Assembly (NCBI RefSeq): GCF_044647545.1
Contig: NZ_CP172818.1
Length of the DNA stretch: 64,000 bases
Source: Escherichia coli
Lineage (GTDB): Bacteria; Pseudomonadota; Gammaproteobacteria; Enterobacterales; Enterobacteriaceae
Reading direction: 5' to 3' (one strand)
Part shown: in pieces, positions 6,317-9,186 of the stretch
How the letters are laid out: each line of letters opens with the position of its first letter
Numbering within the stretch: position 1 is the stretch's first letter
Position numbers and translations under genes: made by a program
The notes under the pieces: generated by a model
Databases searched by the model: none
The model's input: the letters and a program-made list of their open reading frames with translations, nothing else
What the model was told of the DNA's origin: nothing

Positions 6317-9186
6317 TTGCACGTTGGTTCTGGCGCGAATGGCGCTCGCCGTCGCTATTAATTGTCTGGCTGGCGCTAAGCCTGGCGGTGGCCTGCGTGC
6401 TGGCGCTGGGCAATATCAGCGATCGCATGGAGAAGGGCTTAAGCCAGCAAAGCCGGGAGTTTATGGCGGGCGATCGGGCGTTGCGCAGTTCGCGCGAAGT
6501 GCCGCAAGCGTGGCTGGAGGAAGCGCAAAAGCGCGGCCTGAAAGTCGGCAAGCAGCTGACTTTCGCCACCATGACATTTGCAGGCGACACACCGCAGCTG
6601 GCGAACGTCAAAGCGGTGGATGATATCTACCCGATGTATGGCGATCTGCAAACCAATCCCCCAGGCCTGAAACCGCAGGCGGGCAGCGTATTGCTGGCCC
6701 CACGCCTGATGGCACTGCTTAACCTGAAAACGGGCGACACCATTGACGTGGGCGATGCCACCTTGCGGATTGCCGGAGAAGTGATTCAGGAACCGGATTC
6801 CGGTTTTAACCCCTTCCAGATGGCTCCGCGTCTGATGATGAATCTGGCGGATGTCGATAAAACCGGAGCCGTGCAGCCGGGAAGTCGGGTCACCTGGCGC
6901 TATAAATTCGGCGGCAACGAGAACCAGCTCGACGGCTATGAGAAATGGTTGTTACCCCAGCTTAAACCCGAACAACGCTGGTACGGTCTGGAACAGGACG
7001 AAGGCGCGCTGGGGCGCTCGATGGAACGCTCGCAACAGTTCCTGCTGCTTTCGGCGCTTCTGACCTTGCTGCTGGCAGTGGCAGCGGTGGCGGTGGCGAT
7101 GAATCATTACTGTCGCAGTCGCTACGATCTGATGGCGATCCTCAAAACGCTGGGAGCAGGGCGAGCGCAATTGCGTAAGTTAATCGTCGGTCAGTGGTTG
7201 ATGGTGCTGGCGCTTTCAGCCGTTACCGGTGGTGCGATAGGCCTGTTGTTCGAAAACGTGTTGATGGTGCTGCTCAAGCCCGTTTTGCCTGCTGCACTAC
7301 CGCCAGCCAGCCTCTGGCCGTGGTTGTGGGCGCTGGGCACCATGACGGTCATCTCGCTGCTGGTGGGGCTACGACCGTACCGCTTGTTGCTGGCAACGCA
7401 GCCTTTACGCGTATTACGTAATGATGTGGTCGCGAACGTCTGGCCGCTGAAGTTTTATCTGCCGATTGTCAGTGTGGTGGTTGTGCTGCTGCTCGCCGGA
7501 TTAATGGGTGGCAGCATGCTGCTTTGGGCGGTGCTGGCGGGCGCGGTAGTACTGGCTTTGCTGTGCGGTGTGCTGGGCTGGATGCTGCTGAATGTACTTC
7601 GCCGCATGACGCTGAAATCGCTACCTCTGCGCCTGGCGGTTAGCCGCCTGTTACGTCAGCCGTGGTCAACGTTAAGCCAGCTTTCGGCATTTTCGCTCTC
7701 CTTTATGCTGCTGGCGCTGTTGCTGGTATTGCGTGGCGATCTGCTCGACCGCTGGCAGCAGCAGCTACCTCCAGAAAGCCCGAACTACTTTTTAATTAAC
7801 ATCGCCACAGAACAGGTAGCACCGCTAAAAGCGTTCCTCGCGGAACATCAGATAGTCCCGGAATCGTTTTATCCGGTGGTGCGGGCGCGGCTGACGGCGA
7901 TTAACGATAAGCCGACAGAAGGCAATGAAGATGAGGCGCTCAATCGCGAACTCAATCTTACCTGGCAAAATACGCGGCCCGATCATAATCCGATTGTCGC
8001 CGGTAACTGGCCGCCAAAAGCCGATGAAGTGTCGATGGAAGAGGGGCTGGCGAAACGCTTAAACGTTGCCCTCGGTGATACCGTGACTTTTATGGGCGAT
8101 ACCCAGGAGTTCCGCGCTAAAGTGACCAGCCTGCGCAAAGTGGACTGGGAAAGTCTGCGGCCTAATTTCTATTTTATTTTCCCTGAAGGGGCATTAGACG
8201 GGCAACCGCAGAGCTGGCTTACCAGTTTCCGCTGGGAGAATGGCAACGGCATGTTGACGCAACTCAACCGCCAGTTCCCTACTATTAGCCTGTTAGACAT
8301 TGGCGCGATTTTAAAACAGGTCGGTCAGGTGCTGGAGCAGGTAAGTCGGGCGCTGGAGGTGATGGTGGTGCTGGTCACCGCCTGCGGTATGTTGCTGTTG
8401 CTGGCACAGGTGCAGGTGGGAATGCGTCAGCGTCATCAGGAGCTGGTGGTGTGGCGCACACTCGGTGCGGGGAAAAAACTGCTGCGTACCACGTTGTGGT
8501 GTGAGTTCGCCATGCTTGGGTTTGTTTCTGGCCTGGTAGCCGCAATTGGTGCGGAAACGGCGCTGGCAGTGTTGCAGGCGAAAGTGTTTGATTTTCCGTG
8601 GGAGCCAGACTGGCGATTGTGGATTGTGCTGCCGTGCAGCGGTGCACTGCTGCTGTCGCTTTTCGGCGGCTGGCTGGGTGCGCGATTGGTTAAGGGTAAG
8701 GTGTTCAGTTGCGGGTGTGGAGCGCGCACAGGACGAGAGGGAGAGAGCAAGAGGGCGGGGGCAGCGAAAAAGGGGGGGAACAGGCGAAAAAAGAAACAGG
8801 GGGGGGAGCGGGGCCCCTACTGCGGTCGCCGCGCGCGGCCGGGGCGCCCCTGCGTGCCTCGTCCGCAGGCCGAAAGCGAAACTAAAGCAGATGAGTCTGC
8901 CCATTCCAAGTCACCAACTTGGGCGCGGAAAAAAAAAAAACGCTGCTCTTTTCCCATAGCTGTTGATCGCGGCCCGGACCCCGCGCGGGGACACCATATC
9001 AAAACCGGTAACTCTCAACCATTTCAAGGCATGTTCTCACGATCAACTCGCCGATATTCAGAATACCGCCCATCACTGCGCCTTAACCCATTCCGCCACT
9101 TCCGCCCACTCACCGCGAAAGACAACTTTTTCAGCTTTTTTCTCAAGCTGATAGCGATACATCGGGTCGTAATATTCTTCAAGTAA
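6313..9186 (+). CDS. ybbP: FtsX-like ABC permease YbbP; observed frame is about 150 codons longer than expected and runs through an anomalous tract
   Basis: Start overlaps ybbA stop; two FtsX-type TM bundles; no in-frame stop until 9186, terminal part low-complexity. Confidence 0.6.

Follow-up and report, generated by a model that had tools for sequence, protein, structure and literature searches.

YbbP is a permease with ten transmembrane segments that belongs to the type VII ATP-binding cassette (ABC) complex YbbAP-TesA (PMC12646458). In Escherichia coli, ybbP converges on mnmH, the gene for tRNA 2-selenouridine synthase, and several natural alleles occur between the two: an Rhs element with ylbG (K-12, O157:H7), a short spacer with repetitive extragenic palindromic (REP) sequence only, and—in genomes of the sequence type 648 (ST648) lineage—a spacer containing a dinQ-like type I toxin locus. 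Here, we analyze a 64,000-nt stretch of E. coli contig NZ_CP172818.1 (assembly GCF_044647545.1; hereafter ‘the window’), in which this interval is taken up by a purine-rich tract (positions 8702-9056) that is private to the assembly and through which the ybbP frame reads on into mnmH. Low-complexity junk and glitches are recognized error classes of long-read sequencing (PMC6966772). Our comparisons suggest that the tract is probably non-biological filler or unpolished sequence, left where a local sequencing or assembly defect overwrote a native ST648-like spacer.

Results

ST648-lineage complete genomes, among them FDAARGOS_497, match positions 1-8700 of the window at 100% identity; 80 kb of FDAARGOS_497 served as our direct comparison partner. 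Against this genome, positions 300-8701 aligned at 100% identity without gaps, and positions 9057-44948 differed by two single-nucleotide polymorphisms (SNPs) and one 14-bp deletion. The source strain is essentially the same clone as the ST648-lineage genomes across the 45 kb compared. The deletion (CTTTTTTTACCTGA, at 22013) lies in the glxK-allE intergenic region and is the sole indel in 36 kb; the SNPs map to 31725 and 32628. Refining the boundaries of the tract showed identity to relatives to stop at 8701 and to restart at 9057.

In the ST648-lineage genomes, ybbP terminates 25 nt past the point of divergence and is followed by a 613-bp spacer and then by convergent mnmH. Within this native spacer, a dinQ-like type I toxin locus is flanked by two bidirectional hairpin terminators that are near-identical (aaccRactgtcatgtcggttttttt), and a REP element is present as well. 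An annotated dinQ (27 aa) is found in strain NWU_4 (positions 557-640 of locus L008); its ST648 counterpart lies at about 3540-3620 of locus L001, and a 108-bp deletion takes out the 5’ part of the dinQ-like gene in ST648 genomes. All 30 of the 30 top relatives carried the native spacer instead of the tract. At a coverage of at least 80%, this spacer was present in 1,315 complete genomes, with sampled full-length matches being 98.3-100% identical. The exact MnmH of the window is indexed in 4,720 blocks of a public collection, and in each of the 30 contigs inspected an 804-aa YbbP was encoded ~605 bp away.

The tract sits at the same site, between the same two convergent genes, as the ST648-type spacer, yet spans 355 bp rather than about 613-618 bp. 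Patches at 8702-8727, 8889-8942 and 9020-9056 are recognizably derived from this spacer, with their order kept, whereas the middle 160 nt, an orphan core at 8728-8888, are dissimilar to it and lack colinear similarity (z = 0.2). The landmarks of the native spacer are missing from the tract: we found neither a REP element or bacterial interspersed mosaic element (BIME) right after a ybbP stop, nor a dinQ-like open reading frame (ORF) region, nor the two terminators.

The composition of the tract sets it apart from its surroundings, far more than chance would allow. The initial annotation had drawn attention to strand asymmetry, to G7, G8 and A12 homopolymers, to a 12-bp palindrome and to GC-rich stretches, and all are present as described, the departure from E. 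coli sequence occurring at 8702. The two G runs (G7, 8772-8778; G8, 8799-8806) are the sole runs of at least seven G in the 64 kb, and A12 (8929-8940) is the longest homopolymer. Further elements are a GA-rich run (GAGAGGGAGAGAGCAAGAGGGCGGGGG, 8735-8761), GGCCGGGGCGCCCC (8837-8850) and a palindrome (CCCCGCGCGGGG, 8979-8990). The purine fraction per 120 nt reaches a maximum of 0.81 in the tract against a window mean of 0.505 (standard deviation 0.055), making this the strongest outlier of the window, whose 200-nt GC maximum (0.695) likewise falls in the tract. Positions 8751-8800 contain zero T.

Because of four small deletions (3, 4, 1 and 1 nt) within 8702-8727, where the order TGTTCAG..TTGCGGG..TG is preserved, the ybbP frame is shifted and its TGA stop is lost. 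The resulting plus-strand ORF (6313..9186) comprises 957 codons—153 more than the 804-aa YbbP of the closest genomes—and runs into antisense mnmH, which it overlaps by 114 nt before reaching a stop codon at 9184-9186. The match to the NCBIfam profile for YbbP (NF041854) ends at position 802 of 806, corresponding to window position 8700. Full-length YbbP has ~804-806 positions and ends in ...GKALFRQFAG-stop; the window ORF encodes normal YbbP through residue 796 and then departs from this ending. Its tail of ~160 residues is of low complexity and rich in Arg, Gly and Lys, and the final 38 codons are antisense mnmH. The initial annotation had described this 957-codon frame and its low-complexity, permease-unlike tail accurately, and comparison with YbbP orthologs locates the expected stop 25 nt past the divergence, giving 804 aa.

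A 957-aa product is not on record in a gene-position index of public assemblies, and a comparison of the translated tail with 5.8 billion protein clusters returned no relative. When the tail and the other ORFs of the tract were compared with these clusters and with NCBIfam, the YbbP portion alone matched. The loss of the stop is not significant by itself, because the T-poor core (14 T in 188 nt) leaves the frame across 8701-9072 open in 5.9% of dinucleotide-preserving shuffles as well (p about 0.06). Nothing in these data suggests a natural long form of YbbP.

Alignment of the tract in blocks to the ST648 and K-12 loci resolved a succession of degraded native segments, orphan stretches and an insertion sequence (IS) remnant (Table 1). 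The segment at 8889-8942 keeps the order AGATGAG / TCTGCCC / CACCAA / CTTGGGCG / A-run, including A12, and differs from the native sequence by a 12-nt deletion and small changes. Its local alignment score was 39, as compared to a shuffle mean of 19.6 (standard deviation 2.5; z about 8), with block z values of 3.7 and 5.0; the terminator hairpin of the native spacer is missing from this echo. At the right-hand end, the IS3-family remnant is longer than its ST648 counterpart, relative to which it carries one 7-nt and four 1-nt insertions, and in a multiple alignment it was, per base, intermediate between the K-12 and ST648 versions.

Table 1 Features of the ybbP-mnmH interval in the window.
Feature	Position	Strand	Basis or remark
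ybbP, native part (YbbP residues 1-796)	6313..8701	+	100% identical to ST648-lineage genomes
Degraded copy of the final ybbP codons	8702..8727	+	Alignments to the ST648 spacer; block z = 4.5
Orphan core, purine-rich, GC-rich and nearly T-free; holds G7, G8, the GA-rich run and GC-rich 8807-8870	~8728..8888	.	No match in the collections searched
Decayed version of the native spacer sequence that immediately precedes the second hairpin terminator	8889..8942	+	Local alignment
Second orphan stretch, GC-rich, into palindrome CCCCGCGCGGGG	8943..8989	.	Block z ≤ 2.3 versus both references
IS3-family element end remnant beside mnmH	8990..9056	+	E. coli genomes, plasmids and K-12 comparison
mnmH (tRNA 2-selenouridine synthase), intact	9073..10167	-	3’ end overlapped antisense by the run-on ybbP frame

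The presence of this remnant bears on one of two readings offered by the initial annotation, namely that the tract is a deletion scar left by loss of an RhsD element. K-12, O157:H7 and other strains do have an Rhs element and a ylbG remnant between ybbP and mnmH, and the same IS end abuts mnmH in K-12 and in the window (8990-9051, 89% identity). In K-12, it lies upstream of ylbG—itself an IS3-family orfA remnant—and between ylbG and mnmH, at the end of the RhsD region nearest mnmH, and window positions 8990-9056 match this outer IS end at 89% with a perfect 26-nt core (block z = 16.2 against K-12). The remnant is not confined to Rhs alleles: it was matched at 89% identity over 61 nt in about 3,000 E. 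coli genomes and 265 plasmids, and since a shortened copy also persists in the ST648 allele, which has no Rhs element, its position next to mnmH does not prove a recent Rhs loss but marks an old feature. Moreover, the lineage of the window has a non-Rhs allele at this locus, and the flanks of the tract are ST648 rather than K-12 alleles. Unlike the K-12 region, the window is free of rhsD, ybbC, any Rhs core fragment and ylbG coding sequence. Neither DNA nor protein searches of the tract for Rhs core, tip or extension remnants or for ylbG returned any, and local alignment to K-12 from the rhsD 3’ end through mnmH found the IS end only. A deletion also cannot make 250 nt of new sequence. We thus consider a scar of RhsD loss very improbable; it is the second reading of the initial annotation, an artefact of sequencing or assembly that removed the true stop, which the evidence favours.

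To trace the tract, we searched 5,426 complete E. coli genomes (28 Gb) by blastn (E ≤ 10), and no match to 8703-8990 was returned; the tract was present in 0 of the 5,426. Together with the unrecorded 957-aa product, this result does not support an ordinary strain-specific junction, for which the initial annotation had proposed a search of finished genomes. A distant blastn search of plasmids and phages matched only the 61-nt IS end, so that a mobile-element or phage source was rejected, and exact 22-26-mers of the tract occurred zero times in genome, metagenome and viral contigs (two scans each). A foreign gene fragment was rejected on the protein-cluster and NCBIfam comparisons, which matched the YbbP part alone. 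Searching the tract against the rest of the window and the 80-kb ST648 region returned only chance 10-13-mers.

We also considered technical transformations of known sequence. That the tract is a miscalled version of the native spacer was rejected, as alignments in reduced alphabets (purine/pyrimidine, keto/amino, strong/weak) had z values of -1.5 to +0.15. A base permutation of the colour-space type, plain complementation and reversal were likewise rejected, only plain forward islands being seen. Sequencing adapters (SMRTbell, Oxford Nanopore Technologies (ONT), Nextera, TruSeq, 454, Ion) and FRT or loxP scars gave no convincing match, the best reaching 9 of 19 positions.

Could the tract be functional? 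Its runs G3, G5, G7, G8 and G4 fall within ~70 nt, with loops of 10 and 20 nt between them, and inspection revealed a polypurine mirror repeat of ~13 nt; these could form non-B structures, and the extension is in frame with ybbP. One might accordingly envisage a G-quadruplex or triplex regulator, a structured RNA between the convergent genes, or a genuine lengthening of the YbbP C-terminus. However, the tract is conserved nowhere. Covariance models of Rfam 15 had no match within 8300-9400 (E ≤ 10), and folding showed no excess stability over shuffles on either strand (z +0.88 and +1.48); both a known and a novel structured RNA were rejected. No promoter-like or terminator-like site was detected within 8700-9072, though both native terminators are gone. 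As to the extension, the frame stays open in 6% of shuffles, and the low-complexity tail belongs to no family and closes with 38 codons of antisense mnmH. Nothing that we found points to a function, and a functional element is the reading to which we give the least credence, bordering on none. The non-B DNA idea of the initial annotation is compositionally plausible; it is irrelevant if the DNA is unreal.

The tract is not the only private patch in the window; others, too, interrupt sequence that otherwise agrees fully with known genomes. At the cueR/ybbJ junction, a 13-nt A/G-rich filler (ttaaaagaaaaaa, 287-299) joins ST648-type flanks. ST648 genomes harbor a 2,560-bp islet here, in which a YadA-family adhesin gene accompanies two hypothetical genes; in other lineages, the junction is a clean TGA|TTA. 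The filler matches neither. On the plus strand, it turns the TCA of the ybbJ stop into AAA, extending YbbJ by nine residues to 161 aa, and this stop-less YbbJ is not on record in public assemblies. Within a DLP12-like prophage (49640-50080), ybcL is frameshifted by two isolated 1-nt deletions in otherwise K-12-identical DNA, and upstream of the gene several small indels cluster at 49662-49740. The best identity of this region was 96.0-96.4% (3,233 genomes; 36 extra viral-contig loci); the variant string of the window occurred in 0 viral contigs, as compared to 36 with the normal string, and the truncated YbcL product, too, is unrecorded. In the prophage lysis/bor area (57280-57620), there are 15 or more small indels, including compensating +1/-1 pairs, and the best full-length match is 87%. 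Finally, a 299-nt AT-rich stretch (58402-58700) failed to align to either reference, ST648 or K-12, or to any of the 36 DLP12-like viral-contig loci. The private patches mostly lie at or near switches between ST648-identical and K-12-identical blocks. This block map was built with the two references ST648 and K-12; a tally of substitutions and indels per kb, which drew on the highest-scoring high-scoring segment pair (HSP) and not on the locally best reference, was uninformative.

The prophage itself (43401-64000) is a DLP12-like defective element at argU with K-12 structure. Its IS3 (45717-46879) and the IS5 in nmpC (53605-54585) are both 100% identical to K-12. Wherever the intact lambdoid prophage of ST648 has homologous DNA, the region is 100% ST648-like, resulting in a fine alternation of K-12-identical and ST648-identical blocks, and no complete genome exceeded about 97% over the whole 19-kb prophage region. 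This alternation could have arisen by mosaicism in nature, or from a consensus that mixed templates or was guided by a reference. Inside K-12-identical sequence, a ~300-bp block of nmpC (55176-55478) is ~70% identical to the K-12 nmpC pseudogene and has a -1 frameshift at ~55205; it may be a recombined porin allele.

Discussion

The ybbP-mnmH interval of this assembly does not match any of the natural alleles known at the site. We favour an artefact because near-clonal relatives carry a conserved native spacer while the tract is private; because its edges are indel-dominated, decaying copies of native sequence, which is typical of error and not of recombination or deletion in a SNP-free clone; because there is no sign of function; and because similar private patches sit elsewhere in the same window. 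Independent assemblies of the same clone lack the tract and carry the conserved alternative, and indel-dominated borders recur with further private patches in the same assembly. The private tract, its degraded edges, the absent functional signals and the sibling patches are observations, from which we infer a technical cause.

The tract resembles long-read junk or glitches and the unpolished bridges of hybrid assemblies in being low-complexity, homopolymer-rich and free of homologs, with indel-dominated borders (PMC6966772). Its site is a spacer rich in repeats and hairpins, the kind of place at which contigs from short reads tend to break, and more private indel patches are found in repeated prophage DNA. 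One possible route would be a gap bridged by a single long read, or a handful of them, uncorrected and containing glitches; alternatively, a consensus may have been formed over discordant reads or alleles. Either way, the defect would begin within the final ybbP codons and remove the stop, and the T-poor filler, by chance devoid of an in-frame stop, would create an accidental 957-codon ORF into antisense mnmH.

Several observations weigh against this reading. An artefact was deduced here and not directly observed. Ordinary long-read consensus errors are far milder than 160 nt dissimilar to everything: a stretch of ~160 nt with no detectable template exceeds what such errors usually produce, and no adapter signature or recombinase scar was detected. 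The remainder of the window is extremely accurate. Within the remnant at 8990-9056, 26 nt agree perfectly with a real IS end missing from the ST648 reference, which shows that some real template underlies at least this part, possibly a genuinely different allele. Lastly, the prophage patches could in part be natural phage mosaicism.

A rival reading is a genuine, strain-private replacement, in which a recent illegitimate event would have lost the dinQ-like/REP spacer and gained ~250 bp of foreign or untemplated purine-rich DNA, fusing YbbP to a basic low-complexity tail and removing the terminators of both convergent genes. The locus is polymorphic in E. coli (Rhs, dinQ-like spacer, short REP-only spacer), the tract is embedded in an otherwise high-quality context, and the 67 nt at its right-hand end are an authentic IS-end remnant, fuller than that of ST648, so the allele may truly differ. 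Nevertheless, a donor sequence was found nowhere, be it in E. coli genomes, plasmids, phages, protein clusters or exact-pattern scans, and E. coli is not known to possess an end-joining pathway that generates filler DNA. Several micro-indels line the edges instead of one clean junction, the 287-299 junction and the other private indel patches would each need a separate rare event, and the occurrence of G7, G8 and A12 in a space of 170 nt is atypical of E. coli DNA. A private replacement is unlikely in our view, though it deserves to be kept in mind.

A local defect at the ybbP-mnmH junction being the preferred explanation, the tract as a biological feature is most likely not real. For quality control, this means that neither the 957-aa YbbP nor the stop-less YbbJ nor the frameshifted ybcL should enter annotation or be taken for biology before the reads have been checked. 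It is improbable, by contrast, that the tract is real in the full sense of a private, G-run-rich polypurine insertion that replaced the dinQ-like spacer, stripped both terminators and fused YbbP to a basic cytoplasmic tail of ~160 residues. If this were true, E. coli would acquire or synthesize untemplated filler DNA at deletion junctions by an unrecognized route, with 287-299 as a second instance, and the locus would present both an unusual case of filler DNA at an E. coli deletion junction and a natural C-terminal fusion on the recently characterized YbbAP-TesA transporter.

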